In this document: positions 12,822 to 44,337 of the stretch, piece after piece
Position numbering within the stretch: position 1 is the first letter of the stretch
How the letters are laid out: the number at the start of each line of letters is the position of its first letter
From: an archaeon
GTDB lineage: Archaea > Micrarchaeota > Micrarchaeia > Norongarragalinales > UBA97
Length of the DNA stretch: 64,000 nucleotides
Assembly: GCA_020057405.1 (NCBI GenBank)
Contig: JAGVFW010000011.1
Coordinates: forward strand, 13,111 to 77,110
Direction of reading: 5' to 3'
Notes under the pieces: model-generated
What the model was told of the DNA's origin: nothing
The model's database searches: none
The model's input: the letters and a program-made list of their open reading frames with translations, nothing else
Position numbers and translations under genes: made by a program

Positions 12822-14642
12822 GTGAACGAACAGTCACTCGAGGCACAGTCAGAAGAAAAGAAGGGGATGGAGGGATTCGGCCTCGTCACCCTCCTGCTCG
12901 CCATCGGCATGCTGCTGCTCTACTTTAGCGCGGGGGGCGGCGACTCCAAGCAATTTCTCGAAAAAGCATCAAACTCCATCCAAAACCTGACTCAAACAAT
13001 CAGGGAAACGGGAAACGAGCCAACTCCGCAACCAACCCCGGCGGAGATTGGCTCAACGGCAACTCCGACGCCAGAGGCCGAAGGCGAGTTTGCGCAATGC
13101 GGGTGCCCCAAAACCTATTCACCCGTATGCGGTTCCGACGGCAACACCTACTACAATGGCTGCATGGCAAGATGTCGCGGAAAAGAAATCGCGAACGCCG
13201 AAAACTGCGTAAAACCGTGGATAACGCCAGTACCAACGCCCAACCCAAGCTCGACGCCTACACCAACTCCGCTGCCAAGCACGACCCCCACGCCCAACCC
13301 CTCGCCAACAATTAGCCCCACGCCAAGCCCAACTCCCACCCCGACGCCAAGCCCAACGCCCTCACCGACTCCCACGCCAACCGCGAGCCCAACGCCACAA
13401 GCGGACTTCACTTTCGGCTGGTACACGATGGTCGAAACCGGATCCTTTGCCAACCTCAGTGCAATAGCCAGTGCCGGCGGATCGAACACGGTAATTGCCT
13501 ACTCGTGGCCAGCCGAATGCGGCGGCTGGGGACCCACGGTGAACCACTCTTGCTGGAGAAACTACCTTGATGCCGCACAAGCCCGCGGAATCAAAGTATG
13601 GGCTGAAGTTCCAAGAAACCTGGTCAATGCCCAAAACTTCACGGGATTGAGGCAATTTGCCCAAGGCCTCAGGGGCCACCCGGCACTCGCGGCGTACTAC
13701 CTTTCCGACGAGCCCGACCAGGCGTTCTGGCAAAACGACCCTAGGTTCAGCCCACAAAACATGACACTCGCATACCAAGTGCTAAAACAAGAAGACCCCC
13801 AAACGCTAGTAACCCACGTGGTTGTGCAAGTGGGCTTTGGCGTTTACCCGCAACTCGACTGCAGCGCGTACGGCGACCCAAGCAAGCACCACCTAGGGTG
13901 CCACAAGCCCTACGGACAAAACACGGCCATCTACAACGCTAGCACTTGCGGGGAACGCGATTTGTGCAACCTCGCCTACTACGAACCGTCCGCCGACATC
14001 CTCTCTACCGACTACTACCCGTTCGAGTATGGACTCGAAGGCCAAACCATCAAGAACGTGACAGTCTACCCCTACTGGCCCTTCGACCGCACCAAAAAAT
14101 GGAGCGAATACGCCAAAGCCCGGGGCAAAAACTACGTAGCGATAGTGCAAGGAACCTACTGGCTCGACCGGCTTATTTCGATGACGCCCGAACAACTGGA
14201 ATTGCATCCCACAAAACAAGAATACCGCTTCTACTCAATAGGCAACATGCTGGAGGGGGCAACCGGCATCATCGCATTCGTTGCCTACCGCTCTTCCCAA
14301 AATGTTAGGAACAACATCATCGCACCCGCCTACAGCGACATACAATCGTACAAAAAACTATTTTATGACGGCATCGCGGCGTCATGTGTTCCGGCCCAGG
14401 AATGCGCGGAAGTAATAGCAAAAACCACTCAAGACGGAACCGACGGAACACTTATTGGTGCGCTTAACGCCAATTTCACAACTCAGCGAACCATCACGCT
14501 TGCCCTGCCCGCCCCGGTCACCTCGGTCAAGCTCTTTGAAAACGGCGTCCTGCAAGACTACCCCGGCCTAATCAGCATAAACGGAAACGCCATTACAATC
14601 CGGTTAGAACCCCAGCAAGCAGTACTGCTAAAAGCAAGCTGA
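12822..14642 (+). CDS. membrane-anchored Kazal-domain protein with Pro/Thr linker and glycosidase-like TIM-barrel domain (family unassigned)
   Basis: GTG start; N-terminal 75 aa ~85% identical to the 14863 paralog; Kazal [29 protein letters not shown]...ENC; long PTPSPTP linker; C-terminal domain with YYLSDEPD (acid/base-like) motif. Confidence 0.7.
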
Positions 14643-14862: not shown

Positions 14863-17229
14863 GTGGACGAACAGGCACTCGAGGCACAGGCTGATGAGAA
14901 GAAGGGAATGGAGGGATTCGGCCTCGTCACCCTCCTACTCGCCATCGGAATGCTCATGCTCTACTTCAGCGCGGGGGGCGGCGACTCCAAGCAAATGCTC
15001 CAAAACGCATCAAACACCGTCCAAGACATAACCCAAACAATCAAAGAAACGAGCAACGAGCCGACGCCGGAGCCAAGCGAACCCACGCCAGAACCATCTA
15101 CTGAAACGCCCACGCCGCCTCCTGGGGAAGAGCAAAACGAGTTTACACAATGCGGATGCCCCGAACTCTATTCTCCAGTGTGCGGAGAGGATGAAATAAC
15201 ATACTACAACGCGTGCATGGCACGCTGCCGCGGGCGAAGCATAGTCGACGGCCAATACTGCGACCCGAACAACTGGCCAACTCCCCGGCCAACACCGACG
15301 CCAACCGTAACGCCCAAACCAAGCCCCACGCCAACCCCTTGCCCAAGCTGCGCAACGCCGACCCCTACACCCACGCCAAGCCCAACTCCCAGCCCTGGCC
15401 CCACTCCAATGCCAACCCCGCCACTCGATTATTCGGGCTACTGGAGTTTCGACAACTACAGCTCCACAACGGTCTTTGATGCGTCACCAAACCACTTTGA
15501 CGCAGCCTATACCGCAGGCGACTCGAGCCAAAACAGCGTCAACGGTGCTTTTGGAAAATCACTCAAGACCACCCAAACGAACTACGCCCGCGCGGCAGGA
15601 GACGCCCTCACCGACGGCCCGTTCACCGTAACCAGCTGGTTCAAGCACGACGCCGAACTCGTCTCCGACCAACCAACTCCCTGGGTAGGCGGCTTGGGCA
15701 AGGCCTACCGCATGCGCTTGGGCTGGATGGGCGGCGGCACGGACTTTTACCAAGGTGGCTGGATGTGCAAAATCAATTCCGGCAACGCGCCAAGCGTCTA
15801 TCAAGTTTATCCAGTCAAGGCAGGCGTTTGGTACAATGTCGCATGCACTTGGGACGGCAGCTCGATTAAACTCTATGTCAACGGCTCGCTAGTGCGAAGC
15901 GACAGCTACGCTAGCCAAAGCTATGTTGGCAGCGAACAGTTTGACTTTGGACGCTCAAGCGACACTTACTGGGTCGGCAGCATTGACGAAGTGAGAGTGT
16001 ATCGGCGAGCACTTTCCGAAAGCGAACTCTTGACAATGTCGCCCGACTGGGCCAAGAAGCGCCAGACTGAAACACCCAAATCCACCTACTCCTTCACTGA
16101 CTCGATTGGAGTAAACATGCACGACTGGCCTAACTATGAGTCGGCAATCGCCCCCCGCGTGCGCGAACTGGGCGTCAAGCACCTGCGCGACAACCTGTGG
16201 TTCATCAACAAGAGCGCCTGGACCCAAACTAAGATGCGCCAACACATTGGGGACGGCGTAAAATACGCCTTGATTCCCGACCAATTCATGCTCAACGCCA
16301 CCGACGTCGTGCCCTATCTCAAGTTCCTCTACGGCAACCTCTCAGGGCAGTACGGTAATTCATTCATCGACGTAGTCGAAGGGCCAAACGAGCCCGACAA
16401 CTTCTACGACAACGTTCCGAACATCCTGCAAAAAACATTCGACTACCACACTTCGATGTACGCCGCTATCAAGGCCGACTCACAAACGCAGGCAATCAAA
16501 GTCGCCGCGCCGTCACTCACACTAAGCCACGACCGAAGCGCCTTCGACGACTACAACTACGCACCCATTGCCGACTACGCAAACGGACATTTCTACCAGG
16601 AACCCCTAAATCCCGGCTACCCACTCATCGACAAGAGCGAATACTACGTCAAGGGCGAAGCGCCCGGCCTACCCGTGCTTGTGACAGAAGCAGGCTACAC
16701 TACCTACTCCGGCGGCTTTAGCGAAACATTACAGTCGAAATACCTCGTGCGCACGCTCCTCGAATACTTCAACCGCGGCTACCCCCGCACCTACCTCTAC
16801 GACTTTGCAAACGACGGCCCATCAGGCGACGACCAGTACCACTCGCGCTTCGGGCTAGTAACCTGGGACGCGGTGCCAAAACCCTCATTCTACGCAATCA
16901 AGAACCTCATCACCATCCTCTCCGACACTAGCACGCCAATAACGCCACACGCTCTTGACTATGAACTCGAGACAACTAGTGCCGACCTTCATCACCTGCT
17001 CTTGCAGAAGACAAACGGCGACTGGTACCTCGTGTTGTGGCTCGAACGCAAGAGCACCGACACCGACGTCACTGCACAAGTGACAATCCGCACCTACACT
17101 CCGGTGACGCAAGCGCAGTTATTCGAGCCCCACGTCTCGGCAAGCGCAACGCAAACTTTCGCCAACCCCGCAGTAATTACGCTAAACGTGCCGGACAAGG
17201 CAGTGATTGTCAAGCTCACTCCCGCTTAA
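14863..17229 (+). CDS. membrane-anchored Kazal-domain protein with Pro/Thr linker, LamG/ConA-like lectin domain and clan GH-A glycoside hydrolase domain
   Basis: Kazal [29 protein letters not shown]; PCPSC-containing PT linker; LamG signature [22 protein letters not shown]; GH-A acid/base [10 protein letters not shown] and nucleophile [10 protein letters not shown]. Confidence 0.75.
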
Positions 17230-18936: not shown

Positions 18937-19030
18937 CGGGCTTTTCCTCCCGCGGCACGCCCTGCCACACCTGCATGAGAAATATGATGACGAGCAGCGT
19001 GAAGATGATGTCGCTCTCGCTCATGTTTCT

Positions 19031-20584
19031 CTACCCCTCTAGCTTCCTTACGATACCCTTGACCGCGTCAACCTCGACCAAGTCACCGTCCTTGAGCACT
19101 TTCGTCGCAATTTTCGTGCCAATGACGCAAGGCACGCCAAGCTCGCGGCTCACTATCGCCGCGTGCGAAGTGACTCCACCCTGCTCGGTGACGATTGCGC
19201 CTGCCTTCTTCATCGCAGGAACGACGTCAGGATTCGTTGCAATTGCGACTAGGATGTCTCCCTGCTGCATCTTCGGCAGGTCGGCTGGTGACAAGACGAT
19301 TTTCACTCTGCCGGTTGCCTTCCCTAGGCAGGCGCACTGGCCGTGAAGCTCGCTGATGTTACCGTCAACCTGGACAACTGCGGTTGAGGCAAGAAGCGCC
19401 GCGTCGTCGCCAGTGACTAGCATGTCACGGCCTTTCTCCGAGTAGAGGACAAACTCGCTGCGCGAGCTTAGTTTCTCCAAGTCGAAGCTGCCTGTAAGCA
19501 GCGCCTCGTACTCTTTCGGCAGCATCGTTCGGGCTTGGTCTAGCGTGATGCCCTTGCGCTTGGCGATTTCCTTGAAAACCGCACGCAGGCGGTAGACTGC
19601 ACGCAATTGCCGGTAGCGGCGGTAGAGTTTCGTGAGCATGAACTGGCCGAAAACGTGGAAGAGCCGCTTGAACTTGCCGTCCATTCCAATTTTTGCCTCG
19701 AGGTCTGCCTTCTCAAGCGCCTTGACTTTCAGGTCGTTCTCGATGCCCTCAAGCTCCTCAGAGGGCGACTTGCCGGACTTGAGGTAGTCGGAGAGCTCGC
19801 CAATGTAGTGCCTAACTGGTGCCTTTTCGCCTACCCAGAGGGCCGAGATTGGCGAATACTCGCCGTAGTAGGCAAGCAACATGTCCCCGGCCTTGCCGCG
19901 CATCTCCGCCTCGATCACGTCGGCCGGCTGGTGAAGGAACAACTGCTTGTGGAAAGCGTTGTTCTCGATCTCAATTGCAATTGAGAGGAACCGCTCGTGC
20001 TGTTCCGCTTCCTCGCTGCGGTCGGAGGGGGTGGTCAATGCAACGAAAAGCGTGTTGACCTCGTCCTCGCCATTTGCTTTTGTGCGCAGGTAGCGCTTGA
20101 GAAGTTCAGTAAACTCAGGGTAGAACATGTCGGTCGCGTTTGGCAGCCAGCCCCACTCGTAGAGCGAGGAATGCACTTCCAAGTGGTCCTTGAGAAGGAG
20201 CCACAGCTGGGCGTCGGAGAGCGGCTTGAGGTCGGCAGGAATTTTCTTGCCGCTTGCCTCAAGGGCATCCGAGTGCCGCACGATCTCGGAGTTTATTTTC
20301 TCGCCGTAGCCGGGGTCGGCGTCCATCTTGTTGACTAAGTTTAGCGTGAAGTCAAGGCAGCTTTGCTTGCCGTAGTAGAAGCTCATGTCACGGCCCTTGA
20401 AGTGGCCGAGGATTTTGCTGTAGTTTCTCCCGCAGCTGTCCTCCATGTTGTTGACAAAAGCGCGGAGCCAGATTTGGCAGAAGAAAAAGTCAATGTTGGG
20501 AATGTCTTCAGCAACCATCCACTCGTCGCCGTCAGCCAAGCACTTGAGCCCGTTCTCTTTCGAGAGTTGTTCGATTCGTTCCAT
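19031..20584 (-). CDS. PEP-utilising enzyme mobile (His-swivel) domain protein with ~400-aa unassigned N-terminal domain
   Basis: C-terminal GGVTSHAAIVSRELGVPCVIGT is the phospho-His swivel signature; N-terminal region has no motif I recognise. Confidence 0.7.
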   Translation of the reverse strand: MERIEQLSKENGLKCLADGDEWMVAEDIPNIDFFFCQIWLRAFVNNMEDSCGRNYSKILGHFKGRDMSFYYGKQSCLDFTLNLVNKMDADPGYGEKINSEIVRHSDALEASGKKIPADLKPLSDAQLWLLLKDHLEVHSSLYEWGWLPNATDMFYPEFTELLKRYLRTKANGEDEVNTLFVALTTPSDRSEEAEQHERFLSIAIEIENNAFHKQLFLHQPADVIEAEMRGKAGDMLLAYYGEYSPISALWVGEKAPVRHYIGELSDYLKSGKSPSEELEGIENDLKVKALEKADLEAKIGMDGKFKRLFHVFGQFMLTKLYRRYRQLRAVYRLRAVFKEIAKRKGITLDQARTMLPKEYEALLTGSFDLEKLSSRSEFVLYSEKGRDMLVTGDDAALLASTAVVQVDGNISELHGQCACLGKATGRVKIVLSPADLPKMQQGDILVAIATNPDVVPAMKKAGAIVTEQGGVTSHAAIVSRELGVPCVIGTKIATKVLKDGDLVEVDAVKGIVRKLEG

Positions 20585-21653: not shown

Positions 21654-22325
21654 TTATTTCGCTAATATTGACATCCGACCTGACTCTACCCAAGCCTCGT
21701 AGCGTGAAATGTTGCGCGGATTGCTGCTTCCAACGAAGGAAAACCAGTTTTTGGTGTTCGCAATGCCGTTGACGCCGACAATGTGACCTGATTCGTAGGC
21801 CGAAAAACCCGCTTCGCGCAAGATTGCCTTAATTTGGAGTCGAAGAGGCTCGCTGGAACTGCTGATTATCGCAAACGGCCGACGATAGCCCTCTGACTTT
21901 CTAGCGGCAAAGCACCCATCAGTGTCAAAAATTCCCCTAACGACACGCAGCTTCTTTACAAGCTGCAGAGCTACAATCCAGTCAGGCAGACGGATTTGGC
22001 CCTTCTTGCCTATTGGAAAGCCTACTTTCACGAGAATCAAGGCGAATTCCTTGTTGTTTATGACAAGGTCAACGGTATTGACGTTCTTGACATTAGTAGG
22101 TTTGCGCAAGTGAAGGTACGAATTGACGCCCAACTCAGTCAACAAAGGCTGCAAATAATTTTTAAAATATTGAAGGTCAGTCGTTGCGTTTCCGGTGATG
22201 AAGATGCGGTAGGCAACTAAACCGCCCGCGTCCTTTCTCTTAAAACGAACTAAGCAGCCGTCGCCAACAAGAGCGCCAAATAGCTCTAGAAAAGAATGAG
22301 ACTCAAGGTCAAAAAGCGGCTTCAT
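21654..22325 (-). CDS. free-standing LAGLIDADG homing endonuclease (double-motif)
   Basis: Two dodecapeptide motifs, LELFGALVGDGCL and VVRGIFDTDGCF, ~100 aa apart; own start and stop; not embedded in a host ORF. Confidence 0.75.
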   Translation of the reverse strand: MKPLFDLESHSFLELFGALVGDGCLVRFKRKDAGGLVAYRIFITGNATTDLQYFKNYLQPLLTELGVNSYLHLRKPTNVKNVNTVDLVINNKEFALILVKVGFPIGKKGQIRLPDWIVALQLVKKLRVVRGIFDTDGCFAARKSEGYRRPFAIISSSSEPLRLQIKAILREAGFSAYESGHIVGVNGIANTKNWFSFVGSSNPRNISRYEAWVESGRMSILAK

Positions 22326-32438: not shown

Positions 32439-32951
32439 ATGGCAAGCAAGAAACGCCGTAGCTTCTTTGACTCTTTTTTCGACGACTTTCCGGACTTTGG
32501 GGAAATTGACAAGATGTTTGACGCGATGATGCGCGACGCGGGCCGCATCAAGACCGAGCCAGGAAAGCCATTAGTCTACGGCTTTAGCATGCACGTCGGC
32601 CCAGACGGCAAGCCTCACGTCGAGCAGTTCGGCAACGTCGAAGTGCCAAAGGGCAAGATGAAGGACGAGCGCGAGCCGCTTGTCGACGTCATTGACGCGG
32701 AAAAGGAAGTCACAGTCGTTGCGGAACTGCCTGGAGTGACGAAAGAGGAAGTGCACCTGCGCTTTGCAGGCGGCACCCTAGTGATTGACGTCAAAGACCC
32801 GGAGCGAAGGTACTACAAGGAAGTCGCCCTGCCTGCGCAAGTCGACGAGGACAGCGTGAAGGCAACTCTCAAAAACGGCATCCTTGAAGTCAAGATGGCC
32901 AAGAAAAGGGCGGCCAAGGCGCAAGCCAAGGCAATCAAGGTCGAAGGCTAG
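32439..32951 (+). CDS. hsp20: small heat-shock protein Hsp20 (alpha-crystallin domain)
   Basis: VIDAEKEVTVVAELPGVTKEEVHLRFAGGTLVIDV...ATLKNGILEV ACD signature; start at the internal Met 32439. Confidence 0.85.
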   Translation: MASKKRRSFFDSFFDDFPDFGEIDKMFDAMMRDAGRIKTEPGKPLVYGFSMHVGPDGKPHVEQFGNVEVPKGKMKDEREPLVDVIDAEKEVTVVAELPGVTKEEVHLRFAGGTLVIDVKDPERRYYKEVALPAQVDEDSVKATLKNGILEVKMAKKRAAKAQAKAIKVEG

Positions 32952-33600
32952 GGGACGCCACTTTTTTCTTTCCAGCAGGCGCCAGCATCTTCCTCACTTG
33001 CTCGTCGGTCAGTTGCGGAAATTTTTCGTAGAACTGCCCGACTGCGTGGAAGAAAGGCGGCTCGAGCAAGACGTGCACTTCGTCAGCGTGCTTTCGCAGG
33101 AACTCGACCGCGGCGGGGGGCGCAACAGGCGTTGCCACAACGATTTTAGCGGGTTTTTTCAAGCGGATGAACTTTATTGCAGCTACGGCGGTGCTTCCGG
33201 TTGCGACGCCATCATCAACAACGATTACAATCTTTCCCGCAAGGCTCGCCAACCGCTTTTTTCCAACCAGCTCAGTGCGGCGCGTAGCAAGTGAAGCCTC
33301 AACCAGCCTGGCCTGCTGCGCGAACACGGCCGTCTCAAGGCCCGTCAGCTCGAGGTCGGGGTTAATCACTTTGGCGCCGCCGTGGCTCACCGCACCAACG
33401 GCGACCTCCGCGTTGGCCGGGTACGGCACTTTTTTGGCAACAACGAAGTCAAGAGGCGCGTTAAGTTCCCGCGCAACCACTGCGGCAACCTCAACCCCGC
33501 CGCGTGGAATGCCAAGCACGATTGCACCACGGCCACGGTAGCCGACAAGCCTGCTTGCAAGCAGCTTGCCTGCGGAAAAACGGTCAATAAAGCGGCTCAT
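32935..33600 (-). CDS. type I phosphoribosyltransferase
   Basis: PRPP-binding motif IVIVVDDGVATGST. Confidence 0.75.
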   Translation of the reverse strand: MSRFIDRFSAGKLLASRLVGYRGRGAIVLGIPRGGVEVAAVVARELNAPLDFVVAKKVPYPANAEVAVGAVSHGGAKVINPDLELTGLETAVFAQQARLVEASLATRRTELVGKKRLASLAGKIVIVVDDGVATGSTAVAAIKFIRLKKPAKIVVATPVAPPAAVEFLRKHADEVHVLLEPPFFHAVGQFYEKFPQLTDEQVRKMLAPAGKKKVASPSLRP

Positions 33601-33948
33601 AAGGCAGTATTTGGCGGTTGCGGGCTTTAAACACTAGAGCCAACACACCCAAGGGGTATGGCCCCCGCTTCAAAAGCCCCCCCTTCGGCCGCCTGAGAGC
33701 GGCTTGCAGGCCCGAATATATCGAAAAACGGTCCGGCCGGCCAAACCAGAGCCAATTATACTGCTTCGGTATTGATTTTGAGGTCTCTAGTGTGGCCGCT
33801 AGGGGTAAAGAAAAACCGGCTCGCGGGTGCCTTAGGGGGGCGGCAAGCCGGCAAGCCACCGTTGGCCAAGGAACGACCGCTCGGGGGCAGTAGCAACTAT
33901 GCAAAGTGAATTGAATGGTCTTCGGATTGGCTCGAATGAAAAAAAAGA

Positions 33949-34144
33949 GTGCCCGAGAGGACACGCGAGCCACCTGCCAAATTAGGTTAGGAACTGGTGA
34001 GTTGAATGAATTTCGTTAGTGCGTCAAAAAAAGAAAAAGTGCTCGAAAGGACGAGAGAGTCACCCACCAAATACAATTGGGGAGAACTCGAATATATTTC
34101 TTGTGCCGGTGTGCTCGAGAGGGTAAGAGGGTCACCCACCAAGT
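33949..34144 (+). repeat. three degenerate direct copies of a ~34-nt motif (GTGCYCGARAGG...GAG.CACCYRCCAARY), periods 90 and 72 nt
   Basis: Copies at 33949-33982, 34039-34072 and 34111-34144, ~75-80% pairwise identity; the third lies inside the tRNA-like gene. Confidence 0.6.
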
Positions 34145-34189
34145 GACTGCGCGCAGGCGCAGTGTGGGGTTCAAATCCCCACCGCCGGC
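34105..34189 (+). ncRNA. aberrant type-II tRNA-like gene (long variable arm; anticodon loop CCACCAA), possibly a pseudo-tRNA
   Basis: Acceptor GCCGGTG/CGCCGGC, U8, D-arm, stem-loop GTCAC-CCACCAA-GTGAC, 17-nt variable arm (TGCGC-GCAG-GCGCA), T-arm TGGGG-TTCAAAT-CCCCA; but one extra nt lies between the T-stem and acceptor, and the loop has C33/A34. Confidence 0.35.
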
Positions 34190-34222
34190 AAACGACCCTC
34201 AAGTAAACCAGAGGTGGTTGAC

Positions 34223-34342
34223 ATGAAAGTTGACGTAAGCAAGTTGAGTTTTGGAAGCCTGAACAAGGCCTTCACCGAGATGGATGAAGGCAACCTGGCG
34301 TTCTCCCGCAAGGGCGAGCGCGTGTTCGTCGAAGTGTGCTAG
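34223..34342 (+). CDS. small ORF (39 aa) sharing the exact 14-nt start context of hsp20
   Basis: MKVDVSKLSFGSLNKAFTEMDEGNLAFSRKGERVFVEVC, preceded by AGGTGGTTGAC, identical to 32428-32438. Confidence 0.3.
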   Translation: MKVDVSKLSFGSLNKAFTEMDEGNLAFSRKGERVFVEVC

Positions 34343-34354
34343 GAAAAAAGAGGA

Positions 34355-34573
34355 ATGAGAACAATGGACACGATGGACTACGCTGAGGCTGACGCGAATG
34401 CGCAGCGGCGGCCCCAGTTTTTCATCAAGCAGAACGGCGAAGTCATCGGGGCGGCCTGGCTTAAGGAAAGCCAGTCTGGGAAGTACCTTAGCGTGGCGGT
34501 CAACAAGGACATCCACGCGGGGTCAAAAGTGTTTCTTTCCCCAAGGAAGGGATTCGAGGGGGTTTTCGGGTAA
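34355..34573 (+). CDS. hypothetical small protein (72 aa)
   Basis: ORF downstream of the 39-aa ORF. Confidence 0.35.
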   Translation: MRTMDTMDYAEADANAQRRPQFFIKQNGEVIGAAWLKESQSGKYLSVAVNKDIHAGSKVFLSPRKGFEGVFG

Positions 34574-34686: not shown

Positions 34687-34896
34687 ATGGTGCAAGTGTT
34701 CAAAGCGAAAGTCAGGCCCATTGGCTCCTCTGCAGGAATCATCATTCCGCAGGAGGTTCTGCTTGCGGAGAAACTAGCTCCGGGCGAGGAAGCGGAGTTC
34801 GCAGTAATCCACCGAAATTTTGCCCTACTCGACAATCTCATGGGCACAATGAAAGGCGCAAAGCCGTTTGTGCGCGATCGGCGCGACAGAATTTAG
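34687..34896 (+). CDS. vapB: AbrB/SpoVT-fold antitoxin (VapB-like)
   Basis: KVRPIGSSAGIIIPQEVL swapped-hairpin motif; directly precedes a PIN gene. Confidence 0.8.
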   Translation: MVQVFKAKVRPIGSSAGIIIPQEVLLAEKLAPGEEAEFAVIHRNFALLDNLMGTMKGAKPFVRDRRDRI

Positions 34897-34904
34897 GTGG
34901 TTTC

Positions 34905-35279
34905 GTGCTCCTAGACACCTGGGCCTGGATAGAACTCTTTCAACGAACTCCCAAAGGCCTCGCTGTGCGAAGTAGGATGAAAAAAGACGAAGTGCTTACC
35001 TCTGCACTTAGCCTTGCCGAAATAGCCCACTGGTGCAATCGGAACGGAAAGGAAGCCAGCCCATACCTACAAGCAATGAGGCAATCATCAATAATCTTGT
35101 CTGTCAGCGATGAGCTAGCAGAGAAAGCCGGCTTAAACCTCGCGGGCTTTAGGCAAACGTCGCCAGGAATTGGCATGGTCGACGCAATAATACACGCTAC
35201 TGCCGAATCAGTCAGCAATCTTTTACTCACCGGCGACCCGCATTTTCGTAACCTGCCCGGCGTCGAATTCATCGAATGA
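34905..35279 (+). CDS. vapC: PIN-domain toxin VapC
   Basis: GTG start 8 nt after the vapB stop; LLDTWAWIE, DAIIHATA and LLTGDPHF acidic-residue motifs. Confidence 0.85.
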   Translation: MLLDTWAWIELFQRTPKGLAVRSRMKKDEVLTSALSLAEIAHWCNRNGKEASPYLQAMRQSSIILSVSDELAEKAGLNLAGFRQTSPGIGMVDAIIHATAESVSNLLLTGDPHFRNLPGVEFIE

Positions 35280-41057: not shown

Positions 41058-41133
41058 GGCAAGCCACTTCCGATAATTCCTTATGGTTAAAAGCAGCACT
41101 TGATTTAAACAGTTTCCGTAAGGTGTGGTTTCA

Positions 41134-44100
41134 ATGGAAGTAGCGCAACAGAGGCTTATTAGCAGCGAGCTGGTGCTGCGGTTCGACAAGTTTTTCTCGC
41201 AGGAGAGCCAAAAGCGGCGGCTTGAAATCGTTGCCTCAAAGTACCCGCAGGTAAAGAGCGCCGATGTCGACCTTGACGACGTCTACAAGTTTGACCACGA
41301 CTTGGCGGACGAAATCCTTGAGCAGCCTGACGTTTACCGCGAGGCCGCGGAAGAGGCGGTGCGCAGGATGGGCGTGGCGTCAGTGCAGGAAAACGAGTTT
41401 TCGCCCCACGTGCGCTTCTTCAACACGCCTGACGTGCCAAAATTCCGGCCCATGGTGCTTGAGCTCGGCGCAGACCACCTAAACCGCCTTATTTCGATTG
41501 ATGGCACGGTCAGCTCAATTGGCGACATCAAGCCGCACTTGAAGCGGGCGGTGTGGCGCTGCAAGTTCTGCGAAGCCACTACCGAAACTTTTCCCGACAA
41601 GACTGAACCGGTCCAGCCGCCGTTCTTTTGCGAGAGCTGCACGCGCAAGGACGGGAAGGCCAACTTCGAGCTTGACGAGAAGGCAAGCTGGCTTGTCAAC
41701 AAGCAGCGGTCTGAAATCCAGGACGCAGTCGAGCGCCTGCGCGGCAACGTCCCGGCAGTGCACGTCGAACTGTGGCTTGAGGACGACCTCACCAACAGGA
41801 TTGCGCCAGGCGATAAAGTCATCCTTAGCGGCATCCTGAGGCTAAAGCCCCTGACGCAAGGCCGCGGGAAGAGCAGCGTTTACGGCAAGTTTTTCGAAGT
41901 CATGCACGTTCACGAGCGTGAACTTGAATTCGAGGAAATCGAGATTACAAGAGAGGATGAGGTCGAAATCCTCAAGCTTGGCCGGGACCCCAAGCTGTTT
42001 GAGAAAATCGTCGCGAGCATCGCACCCAGCCTCTACGGTTACACTGAACTAAAGCAGTCGATTGCGCTGCAGCTATTCGGAGGCACGCCCGGAAAAGTGC
42101 TTCCTGACGGGGAGCGCATCCGAAGTGATATGCATATTTTAATGATCGGTGATCCGGGTTGTCTCGTGGCCGATGAGCGGGTTGCACTAGGAAACGGCGC
42201 AATCGCTAAGATGGGAGAGCTTGGAACCAAACACTTGCAGGAAATAAACGTGTCCGTGCTTACTGGCGAGGGGGGAAGGAAACGGGATGTCGCAACCGTC
42301 TTCCACAAGTACCCTAACCAGCCGGTCATGGAAGTAATTACAGAAAGCGGCAAAAGCATCAGGGGAACTCACAACCACCCGCTATTGTGCGTAGAAGGCG
42401 ATTACGGAAGGATACAAAGAAATTGGAAGCGCCTTGATGAACTCAAAGTCGGGGACAAACTGGCGGCAGTAACGTCAATCCCCTGTACGATTACCGCACC
42501 GGTCGCTACCGGATTCAAGCCTCTAGCCTACAAGGGGGGACCCAAGTTCAGCGGAAAGCTGCCGGCCCGCTTCACGCCCGACCTGGCCGCACTGTCGGGC
42601 TATTTCCTTGGCGACGGCTGGGCAACTGAAACTGAAGTCGGATTCGTAGTGGCCGAACCGGAGAAAGACATCATACCCGAGCTTGAGCGCAAGTGCGTAA
42701 AGCTTTTTGGCATTAGTCCCAAGAAAGTGTCGCACAAGCTCGCTAAAGGCAGAACGGTTCCACTCCACTACTTCGGGCTATACTCGAAAGATATTGCGAA
42801 TAACTTAAAGTTCCTTCGGGAAAAGCGCGTGCCGGCACTGGTCCTCGCGTCGGGAAATAGGGTATTGGCGGAATTCCTAAAATGGCTCTTTGAAGCTGAC
42901 GGCACGGTCTTCGACAAGGGCAGGGGCAGGCGGGTCGTCGGGCTAAAGGCCAAGAATATCGAACTATTGCGGGACGTTCAGATGCTCCTACTTAGGTTTG
43001 CAATCCACTCGCGAATCGACGGCAACGCGCTTTTGATACGCCGGGGGAATGACATCATTAAGTTTACAAAGAAAATCGGCTTCGCATCGCAAAAGAAGAG
43101 GAAAAAACTCGAAAGCCTCGCCGCCAAAGCCAAAGGATTCGCGAGGACAAAGGGGCAGCGGGTTGAAAAAATCGTCAAAATCATCCGACACCCCCCCGAA
43201 GACGTCTTCGACGTCGAAGTGCCAAAGGGCCACCGCTTCATCGCAAACGGCATTATCTCCCACAATACGGGCAAGTCAACTATGCTTGAGTACGTTTCCA
43301 ACATTGCGCCCAAGAGCGTTGTTGTTAGCGGTGGCAGCTCGACTGGCGTCGGCCTCACGGCTGCTGCTGAAAAAGAGGAGGGCGGCGAGGGTTGGGTGCT
43401 TAAGGCGGGCGCCATGGTGCTCGCGAATGGCGGAATTGTCGCAATTGACGAGCTTGACAAGATGAATGAAAACGACAGGGGCGCAATGCACCAGGCGATG
43501 GAGCAGCAGTACATCAGCATTGCAAAGGCAGGCATTGTCACTGAATTCCAGACCAAGACTGCAGTCTTGGCGGCTGCAAACCCAAAGCTCGGCAGGTTTG
43601 ACCCCAACACGCCCCCCGCGCAGCAATTCAACATTTCTCCGGCCCTGCTCTCGCGTTTCGACCTGATTTTCACCATGCGCGACGTGCTTGACGAAAGCCG
43701 GGACAAGGCAATGGCGAGCCACATTCTCGAGGGCCACAGGATTGCGGCCTCGAAGGAAGCCCCGCCGAAGTCAAGCATCACCGTCCCGCTAATTGAGCAG
43801 ACTATTTTGCGAAAGTACATCGCTTACGCAAGGCGCCACTCAGCTCCAAAGCTCACGAAGGAAGCCTCGGAGAAAATCAGGGACTACTACGTGCAAATGC
43901 GCCGCATTGGACAGGAGCAGAATACTTTCCCGATCACTGCGCGGCAAATTGAGGGCCTCATCCGCCTCTCGGAAGCTAGCGCGAAAATGCGTTTGTCGGC
44001 AACAGTTGACTTGCAGGACGCCCAGCGCGCGGTTGACTTGCAGAACTACGTGCTTAACGAAGTCTTCATCGACAGGGAGACCGGCAAGCTCGACAGCGAC

Positions 44101-44337
44101 GTCGTCAATCTCGGACAGTCGAAGAACCGGCTTGACCGCGTGCGGACCGTGCTTAACATCATCCGCGACATCGAACGCGAGTACGACCTCGCTCCCATCG
44201 ACGATGTCGTGAAGGAAGCGCGCAACTACAACATCGACGAGTTCTACGCAAGGAACCTCATCGACGAGCTACTCCGCAAGGGCGAGCTCTACGGCCCCAA
44301 GGCGGGGTATGTGAAGAGCGCACGGCAAAGGGAATAG
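41134..44337 (+). CDS. mcm: MCM replicative helicase containing an intein in the Walker A loop
   Basis: Zn-finger CKFCE...CESC, Walker A GDPG-[intein]-TGKST, Walker B IDELDKM, Arg finger SRFDL; alternative GTG start at 41125; 701 aa after intein removal. Confidence 0.9.
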   Translation: MEVAQQRLISSELVLRFDKFFSQESQKRRLEIVASKYPQVKSADVDLDDVYKFDHDLADEILEQPDVYREAAEEAVRRMGVASVQENEFSPHVRFFNTPDVPKFRPMVLELGADHLNRLISIDGTVSSIGDIKPHLKRAVWRCKFCEATTETFPDKTEPVQPPFFCESCTRKDGKANFELDEKASWLVNKQRSEIQDAVERLRGNVPAVHVELWLEDDLTNRIAPGDKVILSGILRLKPLTQGRGKSSVYGKFFEVMHVHERELEFEEIEITREDEVEILKLGRDPKLFEKIVASIAPSLYGYTELKQSIALQLFGGTPGKVLPDGERIRSDMHILMIGDPGCLVADERVALGNGAIAKMGELGTKHLQEINVSVLTGEGGRKRDVATVFHKYPNQPVMEVITESGKSIRGTHNHPLLCVEGDYGRIQRNWKRLDELKVGDKLAAVTSIPCTITAPVATGFKPLAYKGGPKFSGKLPARFTPDLAALSGYFLGDGWATETEVGFVVAEPEKDIIPELERKCVKLFGISPKKVSHKLAKGRTVPLHYFGLYSKDIANNLKFLREKRVPALVLASGNRVLAEFLKWLFEADGTVFDKGRGRRVVGLKAKNIELLRDVQMLLLRFAIHSRIDGNALLIRRGNDIIKFTKKIGFASQKKRKKLESLAAKAKGFARTKGQRVEKIVKIIRHPPEDVFDVEVPKGHRFIANGIISHNTGKSTMLEYVSNIAPKSVVVSGGSSTGVGLTAAAEKEEGGEGWVLKAGAMVLANGGIVAIDELDKMNENDRGAMHQAMEQQYISIAKAGIVTEFQTKTAVLAAANPKLGRFDPNTPPAQQFNISPALLSRFDLIFTMRDVLDESRDKAMASHILEGHRIAASKEAPPKSSITVPLIEQTILRKYIAYARRHSAPKLTKEASEKIRDYYVQMRRIGQEQNTFPITARQIEGLIRLSEASAKMRLSATVDLQDAQRAVDLQNYVLNEVFIDRETGKLDSDVVNLGQSKNRLDRVRTVLNIIRDIEREYDLAPIDDVVKEARNYNIDEFYARNLIDELLRKGELYGPKAGYVKSARQRE
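42160..43266 (+). mobile_element. MCM P-loop intein (~369 aa) with LAGLIDADG homing-endonuclease domain
   Basis: Begins Cys after GDPG, ends His-Asn before Thr(+1); internal LSGYFLGDGWA and LKWLFEADGTV dodecapeptide motifs; boundaries +/-2 nt. Confidence 0.8.

Follow-up and report, generated by a model that had tools for sequence, protein, structure and literature searches.

A Micrarchaeota archaeon (NCBI GenBank assembly GCA_020057405.1; Norongarragalinales, UBA97) carries a clade-specific non-coding unit that is kept by selection and runs on the + strand toward an operon of small open reading frames (ORFs). The unit occupies about positions 33711-34222 of the DNA analyzed here, the 64,000 nucleotides between forward-strand positions 13,111 and 77,110 of contig JAGVFW010000011.1 (hereafter the window), and contains an 86-nt class-II tRNA-like cloverleaf with a 13-bp acceptor/T helix, preceded by two partial copies of its positions 7-38. 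Base-pair conservation among related genomes indicates that the cloverleaf is a selected RNA of the + strand. We tentatively favor, with a confidence somewhat short of even, a reading in which it is a non-decoding tRNA-like element of a selected leader, co-transcribed with its partial paralogs and the small-ORF operon and excised in the manner of a t-element.

A conserved class-II tRNA-like cloverleaf

The first-pass annotation of this DNA had described a cloverleaf with a T arm, a 17-nt variable arm, an extra C at the junction of T and acceptor stems and the anticodon loop CCACCAA (C33, A34), all of which we recover:

34105-34190, + strand: class-II tRNA-like cloverleaf, 86 nt, from ARAGORN and base-pair conservation.
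34105-34111 and 34183-34189, + strand: acceptor stem, GCCGGUG/CGCCGGC.
34114-34116 and 34127-34129, + strand: D stem.
34131-34135 and 34143-34147, + strand: anticodon stem, enclosing the loop CCACCAA at 34136-34142.
34148-34161, + strand: variable arm with the loop GCAG, within a 17-nt variable region (34148-34164).
34165-34181, + strand: T arm UGGGG-UUCAAAU-CCCCA, extending to 34164-34182 and 6 bp with the pair G34164-C34182.
34190, + strand: discriminator A34190 (A73), an A in all three versions of the locus.

We found three distinct versions of the locus, all in one narrow clade and at the same genomic position. Besides that of the window, these are L081, a groundwater contig reached through the neighboring phosphoribosyltransferase (PRTase) gene (70% amino acid (aa) identity, same gene order), whose 565-nt spacer aligns with the window at 81%, and L102, a partial version that, together with L086 (the same as L081), was all that a metagenome scan with a D-loop plus T-loop pattern returned. 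Further contigs reached through the DUF736-like protein encoded downstream are all identical to L081 in the spacer, and JGI metagenome contig 3300038439 Ga0394675_066552 (L112) has the same sequence as the window and is not a separate version. Loci anchored on the prolyl-tRNA synthetase (ProRS) gene in 80 DPANN genomes contained no similar DNA; in the nearest of these, L001, the flanking synteny is kept and the corresponding spacer has no tRNA, Rfam match or significant similarity. The first-pass annotation had named as a refutation that the motif copies occur nowhere else and the region is a mere untranslated spacer; related genomes do have the copies, at this same position.

The cloverleaf has 78 pair cells in the three versions taken together, of which 97.4% are standard pairs, and five pairs have changed on both sides, one each in the acceptor, anticodon and T stems and two in the variable stem. 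Only one of 500 shuffles paired as well, and sliding the partners against each other left 40-60% paired. The structure conservation index is 1.07 (z -6.9), and six G-U cells, which would be A-C on the opposite strand, fix the strand of the cloverleaf as +. Window and L081 are 77% identical here, with the differences either compensatory or located in the loop. The acceptor/T helix is of the 7/6 type and counts 13 bp, and both the extra C34182 between T stem and acceptor stem and the G34164 that faces it are kept in all three versions. Equally invariant are the elbow nucleotides U8, A14, G18, G19, U54, U55, C56 and A58, all canonical, and the variable loop GCAG, which stays the same while the variable stem covaries. 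The anticodon loop, by contrast, reads CCACCAA in the window and CUGUCGA in L081 and L102, differing at four of seven positions next to an identical D arm.

In the L102 cloverleaf (794-879), a C3-A70 mismatch interrupts the acceptor stem and a G50-A64 mismatch the T stem, and the variable arm resembles that of the window more than that of L081. Decay at an early stage, recombination between the lineages, or sequence errors in a 1-kb contig of low coverage could underlie these features.

tRNA identity of the cloverleaf

As far as can be judged from sequence, the cloverleaf is not an ordinary decoder, because its anticodon loop varies between lineages and because it falls below threshold for every Rfam tRNA model. 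At gathering thresholds, a scan of the window reported only a tRNA-Asn and a tRNA-Ala. The Rfam scan proposed as a check in the first-pass annotation yielded a tRNA signal at the cloverleaf, albeit a sub-threshold one: the selenocysteine tRNA (tRNA-Sec) model RF01852 scores 28.2 bits in both the window and L081 (cut-off 47 bits), and the general model RF00005 (cut-off 29 bits) also stays below threshold and scores lower than this best clan member. The 7/6 helix, as in mycobacterial tRNA-Sec, accounts for this sole signal. A mascRNA match of 17.5 bits covers only the T arm, and the signal recognition particle (SRP) RNA and RNase P RNA that had been weighed earlier found no match in either the window locus or L081, even with E values as high as 10 allowed. 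The canonical 7/5 (12-bp) arrangement of acceptor and T stems is absent, as is the canonical anticodon-loop combination of U33, a purine at position 37 and an anticodon shared by close relatives. ARAGORN names the cloverleaf tRNA-Gly(ACC), with a shifted acceptor stem, in the window and tRNA-Asp(GTC) in the relatives, labels that would corrupt the tRNA inventories of these genomes.

We rejected an assignment as tRNA-Sec, given that the anticodon is ACC or GUC rather than UCA, position 73 is A rather than G, and the score lies far below 47 bits. The D arm of tRNA-Sec has a stem of 6-7 bp and a 4-nt loop; the window allows a 5-bp stem capped by a GAGA loop, which a U-U breaks in L081 and L102. 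A Micrarchaeota tRNA-Leu has A73 and the variable loop UCAG, and A73 together with a long variable arm with an NNAG loop at its tip is the identity set of archaeal tRNA-Leu and leucyl-tRNA synthetase; model scores, 40 bits for tRNA-Val and 38.9 bits for tRNA-Leu, did not confirm a tRNA-Leu origin. The loop CUGUCGA of the relatives is fully canonical (U33, G37, A38) and the same as that of Micrarchaeota tRNA-Asp(GUC), itself a 75-nt class-I tRNA with G73.

These affinities bear on the main alternative, which we consider somewhat unlikely, namely that the cloverleaf is a working irregular tRNA, an archaeal counterpart of the allo-tRNAs with Leu-type charging and a free anticodon (GUC in the relatives, ACC in the window). 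It would serve low-level recoding or a non-ribosomal user of aminoacyl-tRNA, and the upstream partial copies would be by-products kept for expression or processing. The canonical elbow, the loop of the relatives (with U33, G37 and A38 as Micrarchaeota tRNAs have them, and identical to that of a Micrarchaeota tRNA-Asp) and the agreement of A73 and the NNAG variable loop with tRNA-Leu all suit such a tRNA, as do traits of the allo-tRNAs themselves, which have varied anticodons (GUC being one of the commonest), lie close to toxin-antitoxin genes and share polycistrons with tRNA-like sequences of irregular type; in both the window and L102, a VapBC pair is located 500 nt downstream. However, the window loop has C33 and A34, a combination that to our knowledge no normal archaeal elongator tRNA uses, the anticodon varies among close relatives, the cloverleaf has no promoter of its own and is sub-threshold for both RF00005 and RF01852, genomes of the L081 type lack a VapC gene, and a Leu-charged tRNA with the anticodon GUC would be harmful.

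Partial copies of the cloverleaf and selection on the locus

The triplicated motif reported in the first-pass annotation is borne out as three direct copies of 32 nt, U1 (33949-33980), U2 (34039-34070) and U3 (34111-34142), of which U3 is positions 7-38 of the cloverleaf itself. They agree at 23-27 of 32 positions, and the pattern GTGCYCGARAGG-N8-12-CACCNNCCAA that they share occurs three times in 64 kb against 0.00 expected, with no occurrence elsewhere in the window. U1 and U2 belong to a 91-nt tandem duplication (score 27; shuffle maximum 5), in which every unit contains GTGARTTGAATG, an A-run just before the 32-nt unit, a GARA-capped hairpin, GAGNGYC and the CACCNNCCAA motif. The parts of the locus upstream of the cloverleaf that bear on these repeats are as follows:

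33906-33996, + strand: tandem unit A, with GTGAATTGAATG, an A8 run (33939-33946) and U1, the copy of cloverleaf positions 7-38, which opens with a GAGA-capped hairpin.
33997-34087, + strand: tandem unit B, with GTGAGTTGAATG, an A7-G-A5 run (34026-34038), U2 and a variable second hairpin (34062-34081).
33839-33875, + strand: U0 segment CGGCAAGCCGGCAAGCCACCGTTGGCCAAGG, a further CCACC...CCAA motif, 78% identical to L081.
33787-33838, strand unspecified: 52-nt segment present in the window genome only (a gap against L081).

U0 repeats 14 nt of the cloverleaf 3' end (GCCGGCAAGCCACC vs GCCGGCAAACGACC), and within the 52-nt segment, 33818-33837 copies part of U1 in inverted orientation (20 nt, of which 75% complement 33952-33971). 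The two A-runs, A8 and A7GA5, are among only five homopolymer runs of at least 7 in 64 kb. Two interpretations of the units were tried and discarded: as full-length degenerate tRNAs with T-arm remnants, the sequence 3' of U1 and U2 compares with the 3' part of the cloverleaf at p = 0.5-0.9, and the cloverleaf model matches neither as a whole tRNA copy; as mini-ORFs starting at GUG, they keep no frame and carry indels that are not multiples of three. In L001, the interval 15840-15990, between the homolog of the downstream 39-aa ORF and the DUF736-like gene, contains two hairpin units (…GGCGGACGC…) parted by long A-runs; this layout echoes the units of the window, and the sequence similarity is not significant.

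As a neutral yardstick we used third codon positions of eight flanking genes, which are 58% identical between window and L081; unconstrained spacers in the locus are 35-46% identical. The segments of the locus stand at 82% (before U1), 72% (U1), 72% (after U1), 100% (before U2), 63% (U2) and 76% (trailer segment), and the pre-U2 segment 34020-34038, fully identical in L081, is 95% identical (18/19) in L102. Because the identities of U1 and of the segments before U1 and U2 exceed the neutral 58%, the locus has been under purifying selection, and the comparison indicates that U1 and U2 are not neutral relics. Contrary to the initial statement that the + strand has no ORF of 60 aa or more, 33618-33893 (+) is a 91-aa ORF with a TTG start, and two ORFs of the minus strand (129 and 71 aa) overlap the region; none is conserved, as the L081 ORF reads the conserved block in another frame and the 52-nt indel intervenes. 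Nor is the region GC-rich, as had been stated: it has 54.5% GC against 55.7% for the window, and 33901-34104 only 43%.

U2 and U3 have changed together. The triplet at the anticodon position is GCC in U1 and ACC or GUC in U2 and U3, and in each genome U2 has the version of 10-12 nt that U3 has (GUCACCCACCAA in the window, GUCCCCUGUC in the relatives), the shared segment being GTCACCCACCAA in the window and GTCCCCTGTC in L081 and L102. Aligned across versions, these matching changes identify concerted evolution, for which gene conversion between repeats 72 nt apart would be the simplest cause and a functional link an alternative.

These data weigh on two accounts of how the copies arose. It is very unlikely that the locus is a decaying Leu-type tRNA pseudogene whose copies are scars of integrase action or slippage, with no present function. 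Several observations are in line with such an account: the copies stop in the anticodon loop (positions 36-38), a classical crossover and split point; local rearrangements have left the 52-nt indel with its inverted partial copy as well as a duplication of 8 nt; the acceptor and T stems of L102 each contain a mismatch; the more distant relative L001 lacks the locus; and there is an archaeal precedent for a recombinase element that leaves a 5' fragment upstream of a tRNA (PMC3293823). They are opposed by the five double-sided pair changes, the 97.4% pairing and identities of 72-100% across U1, U2 and the A-runs, against a neutral level of at most 58%. Moreover, the syntenic block from ProRS to SMC contains only HSP20, PRTase, small ORFs, VapBC and DHBP synthase and is free of integrase and mobile-element genes, the ORFs scanned on either side of it include no integrase, and against phage, plasmid and viral contigs four viral pattern scans gave nothing or random matches and BLAST gave no match. 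What stands of the earlier proposal of a tRNA pseudogene with att-like duplications is a partial 5' duplication that ends in the anticodon loop; the pseudogene itself is not supported. An integrase-type origin of the partial copies is possible on this analysis.

The split or multi-5'-half tRNA that had also been proposed, in which U1, U2 and U3 would be 5' halves joined by the splicing endonuclease to one 3' half, fares worse still, and we give it almost no credence. DPANN archaea are where split tRNAs were found (PMC4033280), the copies halt at the canonical 37/38 junction, and the units differ in their 'anticodons' (GCC in U1; ACC or GUC in U2/U3). But where the 5' strand of an acceptor stem should be, U1 and U2 have A-runs; they are preceded by AAAAAAAAGA and AAAAAAAGAAAAA, and neither complements the acceptor 3' strand CGCCGGC. 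U1 of L081 is unable to pair with the 3' strand GGGGC into an anticodon stem, U3 already continues without a break into the 3' half, and the cloverleaf model matches neither U1 nor U2. Flanks able to form bulge-helix-bulge (BHB) structures were seen neither by inspection nor in the intron mode of ARAGORN, which adds only an implausible minus-strand call, no dedicated BHB search having been run.

A leader probably transcribed toward the small-ORF operon

Around the units and the cloverleaf, four further elements are relevant to transcription and processing:

33711-33786, + strand: conserved 5' block and candidate + promoter region, 83% identical to L081, with a 33-nt perfect run, and without a second copy in the window.
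34088-34104, + strand: AT-/T-rich leader CTCGAATATATTTCTTGT, 38% conserved, AT-rich at the same columns in the three versions.
34191-34222, + strand: trailer AACGACCCTCAA, identical in the three versions, followed by the Shine-Dalgarno sequence (SD) GAGGTGG (34211-34217) of the 39-aa ORF.
34223-34342, + strand: 39-aa ORF, first gene of the downstream small-ORF/DUF736-like operon, 74% identical to L081 at the amino acid level; given as context and not part of the RNA.

The 5' block contains the TATA-like sequences GAATATATCG (33714-33723) and CAATTATACT (33752-33761), and its putative promoter role derives from the TATA spacing at true tRNA genes. At tRNA-Asn and tRNA-Ala the 3' edge of the TATA element lies 27-28 nt upstream of the mature 5' end, and pyrimidine- or T-rich tracts lie behind the gene. 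At the cloverleaf, the sole AT-rich element is 6 nt upstream, too near to be its promoter, and nothing is conserved at -27 to -35; between the cloverleaf and the 39-aa ORF, which starts 33 nt downstream, there is no T-run. With no promoter at tRNA distance and no T-run behind the cloverleaf, we infer that it originates from a longer precursor. Its layout is that of a t-element, a tRNA-like fold that abuts a transcript end and lacks a promoter and terminator of its own. A resemblance between the cloverleaf leader and the pre-U2 segment (GAATATATTTC-TT-GTGC vs GAATGAATTTCGTTAGTGC) is suggestive and not significant (p = 0.2), and we do not retain it as homology.

Within the 33-nt identical run, the palindrome GGTCCGGCCGGCC (33730-33742) is preserved though neutral sites are saturated, and it has no second copy in the window. 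Its conservation exceeds what a promoter needs, which makes it a possible, putative protein-binding site.

Under the reading that we favor, the cloverleaf would be made inside a + strand precursor that probably starts at the conserved block 33711-33786, and RNase P and tRNase Z would excise it, as with a t-element or mascRNA. The same cuts would yield the 3' end of an RNA of the upstream units and let the small-ORF mRNA begin with AACGACCCUCAA...SD as its 5' end. Once released, the cloverleaf would be a non-standard tRNA, probably given CCA, which would not act as a normal decoder and may be leucylated, the latter on account of A73 and the long variable arm with its NNAG loop, the identity set of archaeal tRNA-Leu. 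U1 and U2 would be modules of the precursor RNA, each a hairpin capped by GNRA, a stable type of four-base loop, and behind it an unpaired CCACC motif that complements the SD, and gene conversion would hold U2 identical to U3.

Complementarity between the units and the start of the operon raises the question of translational control. RNAalifold pairs U1 (GCCACC / AUCGCC) with the SD region (GGUGGU / GGUGAU) over 6 bp, of which one has both bases changed and two have a single base changed, and pairs GAGAGUC of U2 with GACCCUC of the trailer, which complements GAGGGTC in U3 and, with one mismatch, GAGAGTC in U2; in the window, U0 is the strongest predicted partner of the SD region (-17.8 kcal/mol). 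We treat these predicted pairings as leads only, as they involve short repeated motifs and the L081 comparison of U0 with the SD used a misplaced SD window. A leader devoted to such control, in which CCACC-type motifs of U0 and U1 (and of window U2 and U3) mask the SD of the 39-aa ORF and folding or excision of the cloverleaf frees it or not, seems to us quite improbable. It would explain the covariation in the U1-SD helix, the rank of U0 among SD partners and the invariance of the trailer GACCCUC, whose complement GAGGGUC lies inside the cloverleaf. Yet short GC-rich complements of an SD easily arise by chance in 480 nt, U2 and U3 of L081 lack such a motif while U0 pairs weakly there (with the misplaced window), and excision of the cloverleaf would put U1 and the SD on separate molecules.

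Strand of U1 and U2

The earlier description of the region as rich in stem-forming segments holds for the cloverleaf (index 1.07, z -6.9) and not for the region as a whole, where folding of the 622 nt against shuffles gives z -1.49 on the + strand, nor for the U1 and U2 modules, with structure conservation indices near 0.5. On the minus strand the region reaches z -3.38, and the U1 core has an index of 0.78 (z -3.5) against 0.53 (z -1.9) on the + strand. The strand of U1 and U2 is a matter of weighing these values against others. For the + strand speak their common orientation with the cloverleaf, which needs upstream transcription, the GARA loops in every unit, the U-G pairs and the G-U-rich hairpin 33994-34020. 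In favor of the minus strand, the A-runs are there T8 and T5CT7, each right behind a GC hairpin, gene ends in this genome are marked by intergenic T-runs in sense orientation, and two C-A mismatches of the hairpins would become G-U pairs. In L081, positions 2694-2731 and 2785-2822 (its + strand being the minus strand of the window), opposite U2 and U1, match terminator parts of the suhB and mmgR Rfam families at E ~0.5.

These observations could be joined into a rather unlikely alternative, in which U1 and U2 are minus-strand small RNA genes or at least terminators. Each would start from a TATA-like, AT-rich element and, after a spacer of ~25 nt, encode an RNA of ~40 nt that ends in a GC hairpin and U7-8. 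Antisense pairing of its 5' part with the D/anticodon region of the tRNA-like RNA, in which the two are regulator and target or one serves as a sponge, would explain the matching changes of U2 and U3. The rarity of A8 and A7GA5 among runs of at least 7, the T-runs at gene ends, the complete conservation of 34020-34038 between window and L081, the better U1 core index and region z on that strand, the conversion of C-A mismatches (U1 of the window, U2 of L081) to G-U pairs, the AT-rich elements held at the same columns within otherwise unconserved spacers and the suhB/mmgR terminator-type matches all fit. On the other side, all unit loops are GARA, of the GNRA type, on the + strand; the U-G pairs (U2 of the window, second hairpin of L102) and the hairpin 33994-34020 work on that strand only; with the predicted starts, the small RNA would include just 5-8 nt of the co-varying segment; the Rfam matches stay at E ~0.5; the AT-rich elements can be read as promoters either way; and a search of the window gave no other motif copies or enriched targets beyond chance.

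Returning to the reading of an excised cloverleaf within a + strand leader, we see several points that weigh against it. Promoter, precursor and cleavage are all inferred. The minus-strand T8 and T5CT7 behind GC hairpins suit minus-strand units better than + strand linkers, the weak terminator-like matches in L081 lie on that strand, and the structure conservation index of the U1 and U2 modules is low on both strands. A T5 run in L081 between the putative promoter and the units could stop + transcripts, and RNase P or tRNase Z may cut a 13-bp helix at a shifted site or less well. There are three distinct sequences only, the U1-SD covariation amounts to one double change, and many CCACC motifs are able to pair with GGUGG. 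Finally, with a fully canonical CUGUCGA loop, the cloverleaf of the relatives may decode.

A further, improbable reading goes beyond the favored one. The cloverleaf would represent an archaeal family of 13-bp (7/6) class-II tRNA-like RNAs that bear a synthetase identity set and are kept from ordinary decoding, with an anticodon arm that evolves fast, in step with a functionally interacting U2; a tRNA scaffold would thereby have become a regulatory module of the small-ORF operon in a reduced DPANN genome. U2 and the cloverleaf might then interact via an opposite-strand small RNA, or as mimic and target of one factor.

Genomic setting

The locus lies between the PRTase gene (32935-33600, minus strand), which has its own TTTAAA box ~30 nt before the ATG, and the 39-aa ORF, which is annotated as a gene in L081 and in L107-L112. 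Encoded in the neighborhood are, besides PRTase, a ProRS of class II whose C-terminal domain is the archaeal/eukaryal one, HSP20, DHBP synthase, SMC and MCM; the nearest relatives of the ProRS are from Micrarchaeota (DPANN), at 65% identity at best. Downstream of the 39-aa ORF follow a DUF736-like gene (34355-34573), a VapBC pair, DHBP synthase and SMC.

A small ORF (38-39 aa) and a DUF736-like gene are adjacent in the window (34223-34573), in L081 and in L102. In L001 (15715-16400) the DUF736-like gene is present (44% identity), and the small ORF appears homologous by inspection only. DUF736 is otherwise known from bacterial conjugative elements; a search of solved structures with the DUF736-like protein found none informative on function. 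The VapB (AbrB-type)/VapC (PIN) pair lies at 34687-35279 of the window and, as the reverse complement, at 720-1000 of L102. In genomes of the L081 type it is reduced to a 47-aa ORF (L107 4326-4469), so VapBC is not strictly linked to the tRNA-like locus.

Farther away, the MCM helicase gene (41125-44337, +) contains an intein with a LAGLIDADG homing-endonuclease domain (residues ~355-714, matching Intein_splicing and LAGLIDADG_3), and a free-standing LAGLIDADG-like ORF of 223 aa lies at 21654-22325 (minus strand) beside an HTH_10/BAT regulator and a HIT protein. Cumulative GC skew has its minimum at ~19000-20500 and then rises, marking a possible replication origin or terminus away from the locus; the idea that the locus itself is a replication origin with iterons was dropped, since the minimum sits at 19-20 kb instead.

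Comparison with known systems

Given how tiny DPANN genomes are, some 500 nt of selected non-coding DNA in one of them probably serve a purpose. If our description is right, the cloverleaf would be the first case from archaea of an irregular class-II tRNA scaffold whose 7/6 helix does not belong to the selenocysteine system, and the first in which conserved partial 5'-half paralogs accompany an intact copy. Depending on the reading, the locus bears on tRNA-shaped punctuation of archaeal transcripts, on an archaeal allo-tRNA-like class that is charged yet non-decoding, or on the fragmentation and reuse of tRNA genes.

Plant mitochondrial t-elements are tRNA-like processing signals (PMC1920247), and with these, the tRNA-like element upstream of haloarchaeal 5S rRNA and MALAT1/mascRNA the cloverleaf shares a non-decoding tRNA fold at a transcript end. 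It sits 33 nt before an mRNA start codon, directly after an upstream non-coding unit, and has neither promoter nor terminator of its own. Unlike t-elements, it is a complete class-II fold with a 13-bp helix and a Leu-like set, and it has two conserved partial paralogs where t-elements have none; its cleavage is so far a prediction.

Allo-tRNAs have a 12-bp branch of the 8/4 or 9/3 type, and GUC is among their predominant anticodons (Mukai et al. 2017, PMC5389517); irregular tRNAs that are charged yet unused in translation also have precedent (PMC5389517). The cloverleaf resembles them in its long (17-nt) variable arm, its non-standard acceptor branch, an anticodon that differs between relatives (GUC vs ACC), a toxin-antitoxin pair nearby (in the window and L102, not in L081) and other irregular tRNA-like sequences alongside. 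It differs in having 13 bp arranged 7/6 against the 12 bp of allo-tRNAs, in being archaeal where they are bacterial, and in being accompanied by partial copies rather than by full irregular tRNAs. Most allo-tRNAs have Ser identity, and A73 of the cloverleaf would point to Leu rather than Ser.

A 7/6 tRNA-Sec was reported for mycobacteria in 2026 (PMC13449736). With tRNA-Sec the cloverleaf has in common the 13-bp 7/6 helix, the long variable arm and its best, though sub-threshold, Rfam match; it departs from it in the anticodon (not UCA), the discriminator (A73, not G73) and the D arm, which in the relatives is not of the 6-bp/4-nt form, and no selenocysteine machinery was seen in the window.

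The 5' fragment of tRNA-Thr in Caldiarchaeum lies apart from the gene, with a 1.8-kb element that encodes a recombinase in between (PMC3293823). There, as here, a partial 5' tRNA copy lies upstream of an intact gene with its boundary in the anticodon-loop region. The present copies, however, have distances of 72 and 90 nt and no recombinase nearby, and three lineages keep the arrangement under selection. Fujishima reportedly described split and tri-split tRNAs, as known from Nanoarchaeum and Caldivirga, in 2009. Split tRNAs of these two (PMC4033280) recall our locus in their archaeal and DPANN setting, in 5' pieces that end near 37/38 and in differing triplets, whereas U1 and U2 have neither an acceptor strand nor BHB-forming flanks and the intact copy is contiguous. 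Short partial tRNA copies in the same unit are a likeness to the tRNA-linked repeats of E. coli as well.

In E. coli tRNA operons those repeats copy the tRNA 3' end and lie downstream in the spacers; the copies described here take up positions 7-38 and lie upstream.

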